This document shows, piece by piece, positions 9,315-23,950 of a stretch of 33,115 nt of DNA. The notes under the pieces are model-generated. The model was given only the letters and a program-made list of their open reading frames with translations, was not told where the DNA came from and did no database searches. The translations under genes and the position numbers were made by a program. The DNA comes from Escherichia coli (GTDB taxonomy: Bacteria; Pseudomonadota; Gammaproteobacteria; Enterobacterales; Enterobacteriaceae). Location: the NCBI RefSeq assembly GCF_003334385.1, contig NZ_QOWN01000049.1, one strand, 5' to 3'. How positions within the stretch are numbered: the stretch's first letter is position 1; each line of letters starts with the position of its first letter.

Positions 9315-10291
9315 GCAAAGAACTGTTATCCGGTACGCCACTGAAATGGGTGGGCGGAAAAAGCCGCATCATGAACACACTGAAGGCGCACCTGCCAGAA
9401 GCCGACTGTCTGGTTGAGCCGTTCGTGGGCGGCGCATCGGTATTCATGAACACCAGTTACAAGCGTTACATCCTGGGTGATTCCAATGGTGCGCTGATTA
9501 ATTTCTACCGGCAAGCTAGGGACAACACCGACAGCCTGATCGACGAGGCGAAAACCCTGTTCCTGAACCACAACAACAGGGGTGACTATCTCATCATTCG
9601 CGAAACCTTTAACGCAGAGAATCATGCCTTCCTGAACAGCAGAACGGGAATAAGCGACCGCCGTGAACTGCGACTGGCCGCCATGTTTTTGTACCTGAAC
9701 CGACACAGCTTTAACGGTTTGTTCCGCGTGAACGGAAAAGGCGATTTTAACGTGCCTTTCGGCTGCTACCGCAAGCCCTACTTCCCTGAGCGTGAAATCC
9801 GCGCATTTGCAGACAAGGCAAACAGCACCCGAACGCTGCTTATCCACGCAGATTTTAAGGATACGCTGAACTCTGCCAGTCACCTGTTCGGCATGGGCAA
9901 CACGCTTTGCGTGTACTGCGATCCCCCTTACCTGCAATTCAGTGGCCGGGACAATTTTACCGCCTACGGAAAACCATTCGATGAAGACGAGCACGTTCGT
10001 CTGAGGGCAGCGCTTGACCGCCTTTCACAGGAAACGGGCGGCATGACCAGCATCACCATCTCCAATTCCGACACACCGGAAACCAGACGCATTTATCAGG
10101 GTTACCGGATGAACACCATCCTGGCACCACGAAGCGTTGGCGCAAGAACCCGGGAATCAGCACCGGAGGTTATCGCCACCCTGAGACAGTGCGACGCCTG
10201 CGGTCGCCATGGCGGTGGCTACTGCCCGGACTGCGGACCTGTAACGGAAGATGCAACTTACAGCGCGATGTTAATCACCGCCAGTACGTAA
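9311..10291 (+). CDS. dam: DNA adenine (N6) methyltransferase, Dam family, with C-terminal Cys4 extension
   Basis: N-terminal PLKWVGGK, FVGGASVF and catalytic DPPY motif typical of Dam-family MTases; C-terminal CDACGRHGGGYCPDCGP is zinc-ribbon-like. Confidence 0.88.
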   Translation: MSKELLSGTPLKWVGGKSRIMNTLKAHLPEADCLVEPFVGGASVFMNTSYKRYILGDSNGALINFYRQARDNTDSLIDEAKTLFLNHNNRGDYLIIRETFNAENHAFLNSRTGISDRRELRLAAMFLYLNRHSFNGLFRVNGKGDFNVPFGCYRKPYFPEREIRAFADKANSTRTLLIHADFKDTLNSASHLFGMGNTLCVYCDPPYLQFSGRDNFTAYGKPFDEDEHVRLRAALDRLSQETGGMTSITISNSDTPETRRIYQGYRMNTILAPRSVGARTRESAPEVIATLRQCDACGRHGGGYCPDCGPVTEDATYSAMLITAST

Positions 10292-11616: not shown

Positions 11617-11939
11617 TCTAACCACATCAGCACGCAACACAAAAACCGCTTGCCAGCGCTCGTCGTGTCGGGTTACATTTCCGCTGCACCTCATAAAACG
11701 GGTGCCGGGATTTCCACCCCGCTGACAAACGAAGCGCACAGCCGCGCCAGCGGTTTTTTTGTGCGTACTGTATCGCCACGTCTTTTTCGCGTCAGAATTA
11801 TGGCGGGGCGTACAGGGCCGACTTCGGTCGGGCCGGTTTCTTCGTTTGCCGGTTGTGGAAACCCTGTACGTCTCGCCACCCTGAGTTTTCCACCTCTGGT
11901 TGGTGAGTTTTCAAAATTCACAAACGAAGAGGCCACACC

Positions 11940-12229: not shown

Positions 12230-12646
12230 ATGAAGAGCGTTAAGGGACTTTCAGATATTCAGGACTTCTTTAACTGGATGTGGGCGGTGGATCCCCTGCT
12301 GGCTTCCCGCCTGAACAACTGGCACGACTACTACCGCCGCGCCTGTAAACAGGCCGCCCGCAGCATCACCACATACGGGGATTTCTCCTTCACCGTTGAC
12401 GGTCGTTACCGCGTGGACGTGAAAGGTGACGGTGATGGCTTTGGTTTATTTCACATCAACGGCACCGACAGTACCGCCATCAGCTGGTCATCGTCAGAGA
12501 TGGCACTGGTTCTGGAAATGACAACCCACAGCGTGGCCGTGAAAGGCATATACACCGCAGAAGACTTTATCGGTGAATACCAGCGCCTTCTCGTGCTGTA
12601 CCGCGCGGCGTTTCAGGAGGTCACTGGCGGGGAGTACGACGCATGA
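12230..12646 (+). CDS. Hypothetical protein (138 aa) preceding replication gene A
   Basis: ATG 12230 with ggagg RBS; stop overlaps the A start (ATGA). Confidence 0.6.
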   Translation: MKSVKGLSDIQDFFNWMWAVDPLLASRLNNWHDYYRRACKQAARSITTYGDFSFTVDGRYRVDVKGDGDGFGLFHINGTDSTAISWSSSEMALVLEMTTHSVAVKGIYTAEDFIGEYQRLLVLYRAAFQEVTGGEYDA

Positions 12647-17601: not shown

Positions 17602-18645
17602 TCAGCTGGCGCCATCCTGAAGCAGCGAATAGGGATTAAAGCGCATCACTTCAACCCCAAGCCATTCATTGACATGCTTCATCGCTTCCATGACCGGTTG
17701 CAACTCGTTGATGAAAAATACCCTCGCCGCCTTCTCAACGTCACCGAACGCCGCGTTCCCGTCAGGCATTGCCCCCATCAGCTGAGGCGGTACACGGTGA
17801 GCCGCAAGGATATCGTCGCGGGCACTCCCCTTGATGTTAAGGAATTCGTCCTTCGCGGTGATTTGCTGGAACGGCAGTATTTGCACACCATCCTTGCCGC
17901 CACCTGGCGCGTGCAGAAGGATATTGCGGAACGCCCCCTTGCCACGGGATTCCGTGAGTGTTTTCTTGATGGCTTCCACGCTTTCAGCGTTTGCCTGGGC
18001 GGCACCAACATAGACAATGCACCCGGCATGTGAACCGTTGTCATAGTAGAGCTTGCGGAACGTATCCGCTGAGTTCGACAGACTCACCGACAGCAACCCA
18101 CCGATATACTCCGGCATCCCGTAGATTTCCTGGTTGATATCGGGGTTCAGAACGTGGCACACAGCCCCCTTACGGAAAGCAAATTCAGAACCATCATCAT
18201 TGAGGTACCAGTACGTATCGAGATCACTGCCCCGCCGCGTGTATTTCGCCAGCGCAGGACGAAGCGCAATGGGTTCACCGAACTTGTTGCGGCGGACTTC
18301 AAGATAGGCATTACCGAACACGAACCAGTCCAGCGCAAACGCGGAAAACGCCTGGCGGGACAGTAGCGGATGAGGAACAAAGCAGCCGTTCAGGGCATTA
18401 CGCTTAAAATACAGGGCCGACTGGTGCCATGATGCACAACGCGAGGCGCGAGCAATGGCATTCCAGTCCATGGGGGTGTCATAGTAGCGGCCATTATCGG
18501 CGCACGACATGTTATCAAGCAGATCAAGACGGCTTGCTTCATAAGGACCGTCAAACGTGAAAGCACTGAGTGACGGCGCTGATTTCAGTGCATCAGCCAG
18601 TGAGCCCGTGCCGCGCTTTCCGGTGTATTTTTTACGTTTACTCAT
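17602..18645 (-). CDS. Q: Portal protein, P2 gpQ family
   Basis: 347 aa, size and position matching P2 Q; immediately followed on the same strand by the large terminase. Confidence 0.88.
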   Translation of the reverse strand: MSKRKKYTGKRGTGSLADALKSAPSLSAFTFDGPYEASRLDLLDNMSCADNGRYYDTPMDWNAIARASRCASWHQSALYFKRNALNGCFVPHPLLSRQAFSAFALDWFVFGNAYLEVRRNKFGEPIALRPALAKYTRRGSDLDTYWYLNDDGSEFAFRKGAVCHVLNPDINQEIYGMPEYIGGLLSVSLSNSADTFRKLYYDNGSHAGCIVYVGAAQANAESVEAIKKTLTESRGKGAFRNILLHAPGGGKDGVQILPFQQITAKDEFLNIKGSARDDILAAHRVPPQLMGAMPDGNAAFGDVEKAARVFFINELQPVMEAMKHVNEWLGVEVMRFNPYSLLQDGAS

Positions 18646-18650
18646 TGTGT

Positions 18651-20384
18651 TCAGAACTCCATTGCAAAGCCACGATTATCCTCACGCTCTGCGCCGATTG
18701 GCTCATTGATAACAGCAAGCATGGTTGCCCAGGCGAGATCACCATGACTGACACCGCGTGAGCGGTCAGTGTCATAGGTGATATAGCCGCCGGGCGTCTG
18801 TATTTTTCGCACCGATGCAAAGGCCTGTACCAGGTCGCGCTCGCTGCGGTCATACTCCCAGCGTCCGGCACGGACCACCTGAAGCATCTTCATGACCAGC
18901 GCCCGCTTTGAAGCGATATTAAAGTTATACGGAACAGCCAGGGGGAAGAATTTTTTCACTATCTGATAAACCCCTTCCCCGTTCCCGCCGGTGACATCAA
19001 TCCCGATATGCTTCACATTGTATTTTTGGGTGTACTCCTCAATCAGGGCGGCCTGCTGTTCAAACTCCATGCCCTGAACCCTGACGGTTTCCACCGTACG
19101 AAAACGCCCACCGGCAACAAGGGGTGGCACGCACACCGACAGCGCCCCGCAGTCCCCCTTCCCGCTGCTGCCGTTGGCGTCATACCCGAGCCAGACTTCC
19201 CTCACCCCCATAGGGCGGACAGCAAAAGGCTTCCAGTCCGGCCATTCGTCATAGCCATCAACACCGCACCCGACGAGCGTATTCAGACTGAAGGCTGCCT
19301 CACCATCACGGACAAATTCGCACATGTACAGATTGCGAAATTCACTTTCTGTATTTTCGCCGCGAATATCATCAATACTGGTGAACTGCCATCCGTTAGC
19401 GACAGCATCCTCAATGGTGACAATCTGCCGCCACGTTTTGTCGGGAAAGAGCACGCCCCTCTTCAGGTGAGCATGTGAAACATCAAACTCACTGCGTTTT
19501 GAGCGTGGCTGTTCGCTGTTCCAGCGGTCCCCCGTCCAGAACTGATACGCCTCATGCATTTCCCCCGACGGCGTCGAGAAGTAAGTGCGCGTAAGCCCTT
19601 CCAGGGTCGCCATTGCCCCGGCAACCTTCCTGAGGTTCACAAAGTTACTGACCCAGAAAAATTCGTCGAATTTAAGATGACCGGTATAGGACTGCGCGGT
19701 GGCAGCTGACGTACCGAGGAAGTGCAGCTCCGCGCCGTTGGACAGCACGATCTTGTCGCCCCCTTTCAGCTCAACATCCACTTCCAGCGCCGCCTGCTGA
19801 ATAAAATGCTTGAACTGATACGCCTGACGACGGGAGGCGGACAAAAATATCTGGTTGCGCTGATACCCGGCGGAGACGTCATCACGCAGTGCATCAAGGA
19901 GCGCCTCGCGCGCAAAATACCAGGTCGCACCAATCTGACGCGACTTCAGGATCATACGGTTGCGGTGGTGACGGTTTTCGTACCATTCACGTTGATGCCA
20001 CGCCAGCGTCGGGAGGATTTTTTCACGAAGCGCGACAATCTGTTCTTCGGTGAAGTGATTTTTCAGTCTGCGTTTACGGGGCTTTTTACCGGAAACGGCC
20101 TGTTCTCCCTGACCGTCATTCAGTTTTTTCAGCTGGCGCGTGAGAAGGTCAATTTCCTTAAAATCGCTGCCGCTTTTCTCTGTTTTTGTGGTGAGCTGGA
20201 TCAGGCGCGCATCAATGGACTGGGTGACCCGCTGGATCGGAGGTGTGGCATCCCACTCATCGCGTTTTTTCCATGAGTAAATCGTGTTCTGGCTGATCCC
20301 CATCAGTTGCGAGATTTCCGCAGGTGTGTACCCTTGCCAGTAAAGTTGTCTTGCCCTTATGCGGACAAATGCATCCTGAATCAT
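18651..20384 (-). CDS. P: Terminase large (ATPase) subunit, P2 gpP family
   Basis: N-terminal HTH-like segment (YTPAEISQLMGISQNTIYSWKKRDEWD) and size matching P2 P; ATG 20384 has an aggggg RBS; the in-frame ATG at 20429 (592 aa) is the alternative. Confidence 0.88.
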   Translation of the reverse strand: MIQDAFVRIRARQLYWQGYTPAEISQLMGISQNTIYSWKKRDEWDATPPIQRVTQSIDARLIQLTTKTEKSGSDFKEIDLLTRQLKKLNDGQGEQAVSGKKPRKRRLKNHFTEEQIVALREKILPTLAWHQREWYENRHHRNRMILKSRQIGATWYFAREALLDALRDDVSAGYQRNQIFLSASRRQAYQFKHFIQQAALEVDVELKGGDKIVLSNGAELHFLGTSAATAQSYTGHLKFDEFFWVSNFVNLRKVAGAMATLEGLTRTYFSTPSGEMHEAYQFWTGDRWNSEQPRSKRSEFDVSHAHLKRGVLFPDKTWRQIVTIEDAVANGWQFTSIDDIRGENTESEFRNLYMCEFVRDGEAAFSLNTLVGCGVDGYDEWPDWKPFAVRPMGVREVWLGYDANGSSGKGDCGALSVCVPPLVAGGRFRTVETVRVQGMEFEQQAALIEEYTQKYNVKHIGIDVTGGNGEGVYQIVKKFFPLAVPYNFNIASKRALVMKMLQVVRAGRWEYDRSERDLVQAFASVRKIQTPGGYITYDTDRSRGVSHGDLAWATMLAVINEPIGAEREDNRGFAMEF

Positions 20385-20451
20385 TGACGCCCCCTTGCTG
20401 TTTGATCTCAAGAGTAAACGCCCGCGCATTCATCCAGGTATCCGGTGCCAT

Positions 20452-20541: not shown

Positions 20542-21378
20542 ATGGCAAGTAAAAACGCGCCAGTACGGAAAAAATTCCGCGTCGCCGTCTCGGGCACCAC
20601 CATCGACGGGCGTGAGATTTCGGGGCTGATGTTGCGTCAGGCCGCTGAGAATTACGACCCGGAAGTGTGGGGGTCACGGGTGAACGTGGAGCACATGCTT
20701 TCACGTATGCCATCCAGTGAATTCAGTGCCGTGGGCGATGTGATTTCACTGTCCACCGAAGAAATCACGGAAGGCAAGCTGGCCGGTCGCACCGCACTGT
20801 ATGCCGAAATAGAGCCAACCCACCGTATGACGGAGATGTTGCGAGACGGCAAGAAAATCTACTCAAGCATTGAGCTTGAACCCAACATTGATGCCGTTGG
20901 CGGCCCTTACGTAATTGGCCTGGCAATGACCGATACCCCGGCAAGTCTCGGCACTGAACGACTGAAGTTTGCCGCCCAGCAGCGCGCCAGCATCATGCAG
21001 TTCAACAGCCGCAGCGGTGAGCCAGTCATGTTCACCGAATGTATGGAAGCGGAACTCGCGGCCTCCGTACAGGACAGCACCGAAGAAAGCCAGAAATGGT
21101 TTTCGCGCGTCATGGCGCTCATCAGTAAAACCCGTGACACGGACAGCGAGCAGTTCGCTCACGTGCGCGAAGCCGTCGAGAGCATTGCCACGGAACAGGC
21201 CGGCCTTCTGGATCGCTTCCATGCGATGGAAGAGCAACAGCGCAGTGATAAGGCATCACTGGAAACCCTGACCCGCGAACTGACTGAACTGAAGGCGCAG
21301 CTGAAAACCGAAGATGCAGACAAGGAACAGCGCTTTGCTTCAACCGGTGGCAACAGCCACGCCCTGGCTGATTTTTAA
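20542..21378 (+). CDS. O: Capsid scaffolding protein, P2 gpO family
   Basis: 278 aa; position between terminase and major capsid; acidic coiled-coil-like C-terminus; ggggattt RBS. Confidence 0.88.
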   Translation: MASKNAPVRKKFRVAVSGTTIDGREISGLMLRQAAENYDPEVWGSRVNVEHMLSRMPSSEFSAVGDVISLSTEEITEGKLAGRTALYAEIEPTHRMTEMLRDGKKIYSSIELEPNIDAVGGPYVIGLAMTDTPASLGTERLKFAAQQRASIMQFNSRSGEPVMFTECMEAELAASVQDSTEESQKWFSRVMALISKTRDTDSEQFAHVREAVESIATEQAGLLDRFHAMEEQQRSDKASLETLTRELTELKAQLKTEDADKEQRFASTGGNSHALADF

Positions 21379-21393
21379 CAGAGGAACAAAATC

Positions 21394-22488
21394 ATGGGAA
21401 ACCGCTTAACGCTTTCTCGCGAAGGCCGCAGCAATCTTGAGGCCTATCTTGCACGCCAGGCTGAACTGGCCGAAACCACCGTAGAACGACTGGGGAAAAC
21501 CTTCAGCGTTGATCCGGCTGTTCATCAGAAGATGGAAAACGCCATCAAAGAGAGCGACGAGCTGCTGAAAAGAATCAACAGCATCGGCGTTGACGATCAG
21601 GAGGGTGAAAAAGTCCTGGTGAATACCAGCGGCCCCATCGCCAGCACCAACTCAACCAGTGACGGCGTGAAGCGACGCAATCCCGCTGACGTCTCTGATC
21701 TGGCATCACGTCGTTATCGCTGCGAACAGGTGAACTACGACACCTTCATCAGCTACGCACAGATTGACGCGTGGAGCAGCCAGAAAAACTTCCAGCAACT
21801 GCTGAGTGCACAAATCACCCGACAGATTGCACTGGACCGTATCATGATTGGCTTTAACGGTGAGTCGCACGCCATCATCTCCGATCGTTCTGCCAACCCG
21901 AAACTTCAGGACGTTAACACCGGGTGGCTGAAACACATCCGTGAACACGCCACGACGCGTGTCGTGAAGGCAATGACGCTGACCCGTCGCGATCATGAAA
22001 ACAAACTGGTTGCAAAAGGCGACTACGGCAACGCTGACGCGATGGTTAACGACATTCGCTCTTCCATACTGGATGAGTGGCACAAGGACGCCCCGGATCT
22101 GGTTGTTGTCATGGGCCGCAACCTGTTCAACACGCTGCGTCTGCCTATGATTAACGCCATCAGCACCACCAACCCGAACACGGAGCTGGTCGCCGGACAG
22201 CTGATTACAGCCTCCCGCACCATTGGCGCGCTGCCAACCTTCTTTGCGCCGTACTTCCCGGACGATGCCATGCTGATCACGTCGTTCAGCAACCTTTCGG
22301 TCTACTTCCAGAAAGGGTCACTGCGTCGCTTCATCCGTGAAGAGCCGGAGTACAACCGTATCGCCACCTACCAGTCCATGAACGACTGCTACGTGGTGGA
22401 AGACTACGGCAAGTGCGCACTGATTGAGGGCATTTCTTTCGCCGGTGAAGATCCGGAAGACAAGAAAGAGGCAGAAGCACAGGCGTAA
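21394..22488 (+). CDS. N: Major capsid protein, P2 gpN family
   Basis: 364 aa; blocks such as DPDLVVVMGRNLF, PYFPDDAMLITSFSNLSVY and YVVEDYGKCALIEGI parallel P2 N as recalled; aggaac RBS. Confidence 0.9.
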   Translation: MGNRLTLSREGRSNLEAYLARQAELAETTVERLGKTFSVDPAVHQKMENAIKESDELLKRINSIGVDDQEGEKVLVNTSGPIASTNSTSDGVKRRNPADVSDLASRRYRCEQVNYDTFISYAQIDAWSSQKNFQQLLSAQITRQIALDRIMIGFNGESHAIISDRSANPKLQDVNTGWLKHIREHATTRVVKAMTLTRRDHENKLVAKGDYGNADAMVNDIRSSILDEWHKDAPDLVVVMGRNLFNTLRLPMINAISTTNPNTELVAGQLITASRTIGALPTFFAPYFPDDAMLITSFSNLSVYFQKGSLRRFIREEPEYNRIATYQSMNDCYVVEDYGKCALIEGISFAGEDPEDKKEAEAQA

Positions 22489-22537: not shown

Positions 22538-23347
22538 ATGCTGACACCGGCACAACGATACCTTCAGCGCGTGATGGCGCATCATCGGGCTGATCCATTC
22601 AGTCGCGAAGAGCAGCGAACACGAACGGCACATGAACAGGTTCTTCACCAGTTACGCCTCGCCCAGTTGCAGCTGAAGGGCGTGCAGTCGAACATCGCGA
22701 AAGCGGAGCTGAAGAAGCACCTGATACCGAATTTTGAAGGCTGGATAGACGGCACGCTGGCAGGCGACAGCGGACGCCAGGACGAAGTCATTACCACCAT
22801 GATGGTGTGGGCAATTGACTGCCGGGATTATCCGCTGGCACTGCGTATCGGTGAGTACGTCATTCGTCACCGGCTGGCACTGCCGGACAACTTCGGGCGC
22901 GATTCGGCGACCGTGCTCACCGAAGAAATTGCCGAAGTTGTGCTGACAGAAGCCGCCACCAACAGCGAAACCGACTTATCCGGCTATATCCGTATGCTGG
23001 ACGAGCTGGATGCACTGGTTCACGACCAGGACATGCCGGATCAGGTTCGTGCAAAACTACATAAGGCGCGGGCATTTTCACGGCGCGCATCAGGCAGTAC
23101 GGAAGACATGACTGTGTCACTTGGTCTGCTGCGTGAAGCTATGCGCATCAATCCGGCAGCAGGCGTGAAGCGTGAAATCGCCACGCTGGCCAGAAAGGTA
23201 TCAAAGGTTCAGCCGGAACCGGAAAAACCGGCAGAAGAGAAAAGTAAATCGAAAGCAACATCAGGGCGCAAAAAGCCGACTACAAAAGCGACGGCCAGAA
23301 AAGCCACGAAAAAAACCGCCGCAAAACCGTCGCGCAAGGCGACCTGA
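22538..23347 (+). CDS. M: Terminase small (endonuclease) subunit, P2 gpM family, with Lys/Ala/Thr-rich C-terminal tail
   Basis: Position and ~245-aa core consistent with P2 M; caggag RBS; C-terminal ~50 aa are low-complexity basic (KSKSKATSGRKKPTTKATARKATKKTAAKPSRKAT). Confidence 0.8.
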   Translation: MLTPAQRYLQRVMAHHRADPFSREEQRTRTAHEQVLHQLRLAQLQLKGVQSNIAKAELKKHLIPNFEGWIDGTLAGDSGRQDEVITTMMVWAIDCRDYPLALRIGEYVIRHRLALPDNFGRDSATVLTEEIAEVVLTEAATNSETDLSGYIRMLDELDALVHDQDMPDQVRAKLHKARAFSRRASGSTEDMTVSLGLLREAMRINPAAGVKREIATLARKVSKVQPEPEKPAEEKSKSKATSGRKKPTTKATARKATKKTAAKPSRKAT

Positions 23348-23455
23348 TAACACCGGACCCGACCTCGTCGGCAGGCGGCGCGACCGGTGATCTGATCGCT
23401 GACTCCCGGTCATTTTCACCGGTCGCCCACCGCCTGATCTACAGGAGAAGACATC

Positions 23456-23950
23456 ATGAGCATGGTAGCCAGACCCCGTGTGAACGACGCCACGGATGAC
23501 ACGACAGACACCGACGACGGAGAAGCGCGCATCAGTACAGACGCGTTCTGGCCGGATATCGTGCTGAAAGAGCTGCGCCTTGCCATGCGCATTCCCGGGC
23601 GCACCACCACGTCACGTCTGCTGCATTCGGCCACCGAAGCTGTGGCACACGTAACGGCAGAGCTTGACACCTGGAAACAGAAACAGGAGGCGGCGGGACG
23701 GTCGACACTGGCGGACGTTCCGGCAGCACACATCAACGGTGAGAGCGTGAACGTGCACCGGTATCGACGCGCGGTGTATGCACTGACCCGCGCGGGCGTT
23801 CTTGAGCGTTCGCGGGATGTGGACACCACCGACAAAGGTGATCGCCGGGCCGATGCGCTGGACATGCAGATTGAAGATATGTGGCGCGATGCACGCTGGG
23901 CAATATCCGATATTCGCGGCGTCAGACGGATTTATGCGGAGCTGATTTAA
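23456..23950 (+). CDS. L: Head completion/stabilisation protein, P2 gpL family
   Basis: 164 aa at the gpL position; ggaga RBS; stop overlaps the X start. Confidence 0.8.
   Translation: MSMVARPRVNDATDDTTDTDDGEARISTDAFWPDIVLKELRLAMRIPGRTTTSRLLHSATEAVAHVTAELDTWKQKQEAAGRSTLADVPAAHINGESVNVHRYRRAVYALTRAGVLERSRDVDTTDKGDRRADALDMQIEDMWRDARWAISDIRGVRRIYAELI

Follow-up and report, generated by a model that had tools for sequence, protein, structure and literature searches.

The gpM-type terminase small subunit of a P2-like prophage in Escherichia coli carries a basic, low-complexity C-terminal tail that, judged from comparison with its homologues, is a lineage-typical feature and not peculiar to this prophage. 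We analyzed the gene encoding it within a 33,115-nucleotide stretch of contig NZ_QOWN01000049.1 (RefSeq assembly GCF_003334385.1), referred to below as the window. A first-pass annotation of this DNA had described the tail as histone-H1-like, as not known from the M protein of phage P2, and as a nonspecific DNA-binding element that could alter packaging specificity. The second of these points does not hold. P2 gpM (NP_046761, PF05944), which is 35% identical to the window protein over residues 1-221 and is likewise encoded in the gene order N-M-L, itself ends in ...PKAATRAPRKTRSVTPAKRGRPKKKAS (…KPKPEPQPKAATRAPRKTRSVTPAKRGRPKKKAS), a stretch of 29 amino acids (aa) past the core with a net charge of +11 and 38% K/R. 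In this branch of P2-like phages, P2 among them, the flagged feature is standard rather than unusual, and by itself it matters little.

By its profile matches, the product of this open reading frame (ORF) is a P2 gpM-type small terminase, in agreement with the identity first proposed for it. The phrog_74 profile matches with E=4e-73 and is covered over positions 1-229 of 232, and PF05944 aligns along its full model (1-130) to residues 36-169 with E=1.2e-38. No gpM family was found in NCBIfam, and a PDB sequence search with gpM returned only spurious ribosomal-protein matches to residues 2-32 and no solved structure of a P2-type terminase small subunit (TerS).

Distribution of the basic tail among gpM homologues

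Basic endings are the rule among the nearest relatives of the window protein. Among the 120 protein clusters most similar to it, which come from E. coli, Salmonella, Citrobacter, Enterobacter, Dickeya, Serratia, Yersinia, and Erwinia, a K/R/T/A-rich ending is nearly universal; many of these tails are longer than that of the window protein, and a total length of 285 aa is common. A set of 80 viral-contig loci yielded 71 distinct C-termini, again nearly all basic; their final 30 aa have a net charge that averages +9.4 and ranges from +4 to +11. The first-pass annotation had itself allowed that a tail common among gpM homologues would undo its case for an unusual extension, and this is what both sets indicate. 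The shared architecture is a variable acidic or neutral G/D/T/A spacer (0 to 60 aa) and then a basic block that closes the protein. In the window protein it takes a compact form, in which an 11-aa Pro/Glu-rich spacer corresponds to the variable spacer of its relatives. Within this architecture the sequence turns over freely: relatives with core identities of 59 to 79% have tail identities of 34 to 48%, with many insertions and deletions (indels).

A neighbor-joining tree of the core, rough because it uses identity-based distances, groups the basic tails around the window protein into one large clade that reaches relatives with ~35-40% identity. P2 falls outside this clade, in a separate, small basic-tailed one, and the closest neighbors of P2 are tail-less. 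The arrangement of spacer plus basic block is kept in both clades. On the evidence of this tree, the basic tail is a long-retained, clade-level trait with probably more than one gain or loss in its history. The tails of the two basic-tailed clades also differ in kind. Both P2 gpM and the window protein end in a disordered basic tail with a net charge of about +11, but the P2 tail is shorter (~29 aa versus 43 to 45 aa), is richer in Arg and Pro, and contains an AT-hook-like KRGRPKKK core that the window tail lacks (it has SGRKKP). A closer counterpart is the TerS of Citrobacter phage Shae_phiSM, a Xuanwuvirus/P88-like phage, which likewise has an acidic spacer and then a basic end (...SKSKKTTRKPATRKTTATQKAKRG); the window spacer is much shorter, its basic block is longer and denser, and the two tails align poorly.

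Composition and predicted structure of the tail

The peptide quoted in the first-pass annotation, KSKSKATSGRKKPTTKATARKATKKTAAKPSRKAT, is exactly the last 35 residues of the 269-aa protein, and the interval given for the tail, 23200-23347, covers residues ~221-269 and the TGA stop codon. The terminal basic block, SKSKATSGRKKPTTKATARKATKKTAAKPSRKAT, contains 13 K/R and no D/E among its 34 residues. Taken over residues 227-269 (43 aa), the tail is 28% K, 19% A, 16% T, 9% each E, P, and S, and 7% R. It is significantly enriched in K+R relative to the core (15/43 versus 31/226; Fisher P = 0.0017) and in K/R/T/A/S/P taken together (38/43 versus 89/226; P = 2e-9), and it contains none of the hydrophobic residues that are frequent in the core (0/43 versus 70/226). 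An AlphaFold2 model built from a 115-sequence alignment (mean predicted local distance difference test [pLDDT] score, 89.9; predicted template modeling score, 0.80) places the last of ten helices at residues 211-224 and leaves residues 225-269 as coil, with block pLDDT values of 61 to 67. The low-complexity basic character first noted for this C-terminus is thus borne out, and the tail looks like an intrinsically disordered polycation.

The DNA encoding the tail is 44% A and 4% T, and therefore its +1 frame is also open and basic; the +2 frame meets an early stop. The only tandem repeat that we detected in it is a single 11-nt unit present in two copies, and the tail is therefore no array of repeats. 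A scan for promoters and terminators across 23100-23500 found none on the plus strand, and two weak terminator-like matches on the minus strand within the tail DNA were set aside as composition artifacts.

In a Xuanwuvirus-like lineage, several protein clusters have a tail that fits the +1 frame. Protein clusters P0038, P0048, P0071, and P0135 and locus L016 (~1630-1830) show a tail (…KKPIPQPHQKMPAHRRRRTKAAKVKRQRGSLQHEKPPRRRRRSAVND) that, a few substitutions apart, is what the usual tail DNA encodes in its +1 frame. These sequences diverge directly after ...ALKK into an Arg-rich tail of nearly equal length (268 versus 266 aa), and three of the clusters have 4 (P0038), 35 (P0048), and 34 (P0071) members. 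They could be genuine frameshift variants or errors that recur at homopolymers.

A possible role in DNA contact

The C-terminal moiety of canonical TerS proteins is flexible and is their most variable region (PMC9611059, PMC7672466), and the coil that follows residue 224 of gpM, the most variable part of its own family, fits this description as defined in PMC9611059. Deletion of the tail from P22 TerS is reported to abolish both DNA binding and association with the terminase large subunit (TerL) (PMC9611059, PMC7672466). We adopted the flexible C-terminal moiety of P22 gp3 as a functional model for the gpM tail, although the two proteins are unrelated in family and fold and P22 packages by a pac/headful mechanism whereas P2-like phages use cos. 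By this analogy, the tail may serve as a nonspecific DNA tether that possibly doubles as part of the contact with the large subunit, gpP, a reading to which we give about even chances. The basic block would act as a flexible electrostatic arm that touches the DNA backbone nonspecifically and raises the affinity and dwell time of terminase on cos-containing DNA, and it may add to the contact with gpP, as is reported for the P22 TerS tail. An electrostatic contact with a polyanion such as DNA is favored over a specific protein interface because charge is kept without sequence, hydrophobic residues are absent, and the frameshifted alleles are basic as well.

Nonspecific DNA binding, as first suggested for the tail, is accordingly a reasonable function by the precedent of P22 TerS (PMC9611059). 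The proposal that the tail changes packaging specificity found nothing in its support: a sequence-independent polycation would be expected to change affinity and not specificity. Recognition of cos would come from elsewhere, with the helix-turn-helix (HTH) at the N terminus of TerL and the folded gpM core as candidates.

Several observations weigh against a DNA tether. PaP3 TerS has an acidic tail that DNA binding does not require (PMC9611059, PMC7672466), and we found no experimental work on the gpM C-terminus or any functional dissection of gpM in the literature. The ratio of nonsynonymous to synonymous substitution rates (dN/dS), estimated from comparison with two close relatives, comes to ~1 for the tail and 0.07 to 0.15 for the core, a weak indication only, as the tail offers ~32 synonymous sites, its dS is four-fold below that of the core, and recombination may confound the estimate. 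The tail is also often absent or acidic in the wider family. An exhaustive search of representatives at 50% identity identified 825 relatives, and the best 150 of these gave 132 sequences with a complete core, a set that counts the window protein and P2 gpM, both of which were added. The median tail in this set is 11 aa long, with 75th and 90th percentiles of 33 and 53 aa; long tails are strongly basic in about a dozen members and acidic in about twenty, and the remaining members have no tail or a short neutral one. Named phages illustrate the spread. P2, Citrobacter phage Shae_phiSM, and Serratia phage KSP20 have basic tails; Klebsiella phage 4LV2017, Burkholderia phage KS14, Pseudomonas phage BR319a, and a Ralstonia phage have no tail or a short one; and Aeromonas phage LPM4 and Mannheimia phage PHL101 have acidic ends. 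Because the tail is absent or acidic in so many members, it is not required for the core function of the family.

In lambda gpNu1 and T4 gp16, the C-terminal region is understood as a docking or ATPase-stimulating element for the large subunit. It is possible, though we think it unlikely, that the gpM tail mainly docks onto or stimulates the ATPase of gpP, or contacts the portal, rather than binding DNA. TerS C-terminal moieties often mediate association with TerL, as the P22 deletion illustrates, and the predicted gpM core has a tetratricopeptide repeat (TPR)-like fold of the kind typical of protein-protein scaffolds. The distribution described above speaks against docking as the principal role: many members that must bind gpP have no tail or an acidic one, and conservation of charge but not of sequence suits a polyanion such as DNA better.

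Alternatively, the tail could be a weakly constrained low-complexity extension, driven by slippage in A-rich, T-poor DNA and tolerated without being needed, an explanation that we consider rather unlikely. It would accommodate the dN/dS near 1, the frequent indels, the lack of a tail in much of the family, the skewed base composition with its open and basic +1 frame, and the Arg-rich +1-frame alleles of near-equal length in several clusters of a related lineage. A tolerated extension is harder to reconcile with a terminal block whose net charge stays between +4 and +11 in all 71 of the distinct sequences and throughout a clade that extends to ~35% core identity. That the frameshifted alleles are still strongly basic points to selection on charge.

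The resemblance to histone H1 that was first claimed extends to composition only. The tail shares a K/A/P/T-rich, hydrophobic-free composition with the H1 C-terminal domain and with bacterial H1-like tails, and polycationic tails of this type are presumed to bind DNA electrostatically. At 34 residues of basic block, the window tail has no homology signal to the H1 domain; a regular-expression scan for S/T-P-K/R-K/R (SPKK-type) motifs found none in it and matched only 4 of 267 homologues. The R-G-R-P (GRP) AT-hook core is likewise absent, although it is present in P2 gpM and in proteins P0124 and P0184, and PF05944 remains the sole Pfam match to the protein even at E<=10. Gain of an H1 or H1-like nucleoid protein domain by fusion is therefore very improbable, all the more as tails of the same kind, with free sequence turnover, occur along the whole clade. 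On these negative Pfam and motif scans we rejected both an H1 and an AT-hook identity for the tail.

The predicted gpM core, TPR-like and without an evident HTH, has wider implications. Since the HTH and the nuclease both lie on gpP, the predicted core raises the possibility that gpM proteins are not small terminases of the canonical type. As a more speculative extension, which we regard as improbable, P2-type terminases might divide labor differently from canonical ones, with the HTH placed on the large subunit while its small partner is an HTH-less, TPR-like scaffold. In the basic-tailed lineages, the tail would then be the only DNA-contacting element of the small subunit, and tail charge (basic, acidic, or absent) would tune the grip of the holoenzyme on DNA. 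If this were true, lineage-specific tail charge could have a bearing on how cos is used or on how satellites such as P4 exploit the phage.

Authenticity of the reading frame

The tail is read in the frame common to its homologues. A 918-base segment comprising the gpM gene and its downstream spacer is matched in 16 of 5,426 complete E. coli genomes, in 14 of them at >=99.6% identity, and independent complete genomes annotate the gene as a 269-aa gpM. At an identity of at least 90% the protein cluster has 137 members, and the window's gpM recurs on a viral contig (L011). A sequencing or assembly frameshift, which the first-pass annotation had allowed for and which an A7 run in the tail DNA and the frameshifted variants of a related lineage might seem to favor, has a negligible probability given the same frame and product in these independent sources and the agreement of the K/T/A-type tail with the annotated frame of homologues; we rejected it on the identical or >=99.6% identical DNA in the 14 genomes.

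Some database homologues have aberrant long C-termini. For example, P0139 (292 aa) reads into gpL-like sequence, and P0036, P0041, P0044, and similar proteins continue in unrelated frames. The genes concerned are probably frameshifted or misassembled and, where recognized, were excluded from the tail statistics.

A conserved RNA structure between genes M and L

The spacer between genes M and L contains a structured RNA element that begins 12 nt past the gpM stop codon and that is more interesting than the tail and merits its own follow-up. The 108-nt spacer adopts a GC-rich fold with a minimum free energy of -48.6 kcal/mol (z=-4.3). Conserved across Peduoviridae, this architecture recurs in P2, in Serratia, Klebsiella, Citrobacter, Burkholderia, Pseudomonas, and Aeromonas phages, and in 77 of the 80 viral-contig loci. 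RNAalifold, applied to 42 distinct sequences, recovered 20 base pairs, 16 of which show compensatory changes. In this alignment, 94.8% of cells are paired, compared with 35 to 55% when the partners are slid, and the covariation score is 0.571, compared with at most 0.13; none of 500 shuffles reached the observed values. On the plus strand, G-U cells outnumber A-C cells by 49 to 11, which points to a sense-strand RNA.

Three helices make up the element (Table 1). The first is a small hairpin whose loop is rich in C, the second is a GGCGG/CCGCC helix that hardly varies, and the third is a freely covarying inner helix of 10 pairs. An unpaired CAC on the 3' side is invariant. The Shine-Dalgarno sequence of gene L lies roughly ten bases downstream of the element, and a U-run follows it in some lineages but not in the window. 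Rfam 15 contains no corresponding family, its sole matches falling far below gathering scores, and no description of a terminator or hairpin between M and L was found in the literature. The element may act as a leaky terminator or attenuator, serve in RNA processing or stabilization, or control L translation.

Exact matches to the pattern GGCGG-N30-60-CCACCGCC occur at two further places in the window, both on the minus strand (10211-10282 and 12283-12338). The resulting total of 3 in the window exceeds the 0.07 expected from shuffles. By eye neither minus-strand match forms the hairpin, and both are probably coincidental GC-rich coding sequence.

Head gene module and other features of the window

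The genes around gpM follow P2-type synteny, with portal and TerL genes divergent from those for scaffold, capsid, TerS, and head completion (Table 1). The host gene dmsA lies at the left end of the window, which identifies the phage DNA as a prophage. Among isolated phages it is closest to Xuanwuvirus/P88-like Peduoviridae, at only ~72% nucleotide identity across TerL and portal and 60% amino acid identity in TerS. Pfam resolves TerL into PF06056 (residues 20-77; E=7e-26), HTH_23 (E=5e-7), Terminase_6N (residues 158-382), and Terminase_6C (residues 414-574). The old label "endonuclease subunit" for gpM persists in several phage records. It looks like a misnomer that the domain content does not support, because the nuclease and the DNA-binding motif sit on TerL.

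Table 1. Coordinates of the gpM gene, its subregions, the M-L RNA element, and other features of the window
Feature	Coordinates	Strand	Details and evidence
gpM-family terminase small subunit gene	22538..23347	+	269 aa + TGA stop; ORF, phrog_74, PF05944, RefSeq gpM label on identical gene
gpM folded all-alpha core, residues 1-224	22538..23209	+	Ten predicted helices, TPR-like
gpM Pro/Glu-rich spacer, residues 225-235	23210..23242	+	QPEPEKPAEEK, 11 aa; coil in AlphaFold2 model
gpM terminal basic block, residues 236-269	23243..23344	+	34 aa, 13 K/R, 0 D/E
A7 homopolymer in tail-coding DNA	23309..23315	+	ACG AAA AAA ACC; direct reading
M-L spacer	23348-23455	+	108 nt
M-L structured RNA element	23359-23435	+	
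M-L helix 1	23359-23371	+	Small hairpin, C-rich loop (consensus CCCCG; window CCTCG)
M-L helix 2	23373-23378 with 23430-23435	+	Nearly invariant GGCGG/CCGCC
M-L helix 3	23380-23390 with 23416-23426	+	Freely covarying 10-pair inner helix
Portal gene	17602-18645	-	
TerL, gpP-type large subunit gene	18651..20429	-	N-terminal HTH, ATPase, RNaseH-like nuclease; Pfam, phrog TerL matches
gpO scaffold gene	20542-21378	+	
gpN major capsid gene	21394-22488	+	
gpL head completion gene	23456-23950	+	
656-aa ORF	25516-27486	+	RefSeq name DUF6645; phrog_143 match E=3e-297
isrK	11686-11760	+	Rfam, above gathering score
C4 antisense RNA	11796-11883	+	Rfam, above gathering score
STnc130, host small RNA	4127-4261	+	Rfam, above gathering score

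A 656-aa ORF of unassigned function lies between the lysis and tail-completion genes, a position without a P2 counterpart, and RefSeq annotates a small DUF1378 gene next after it. PADLOC found nothing on three large ORFs of the window, this one included. In the early region of the prophage, isrK stands beside a C4 antisense RNA, a pair that suggests a P1/P7-style antisense immunity element. The host small RNA STnc130 adjoins dmsA.
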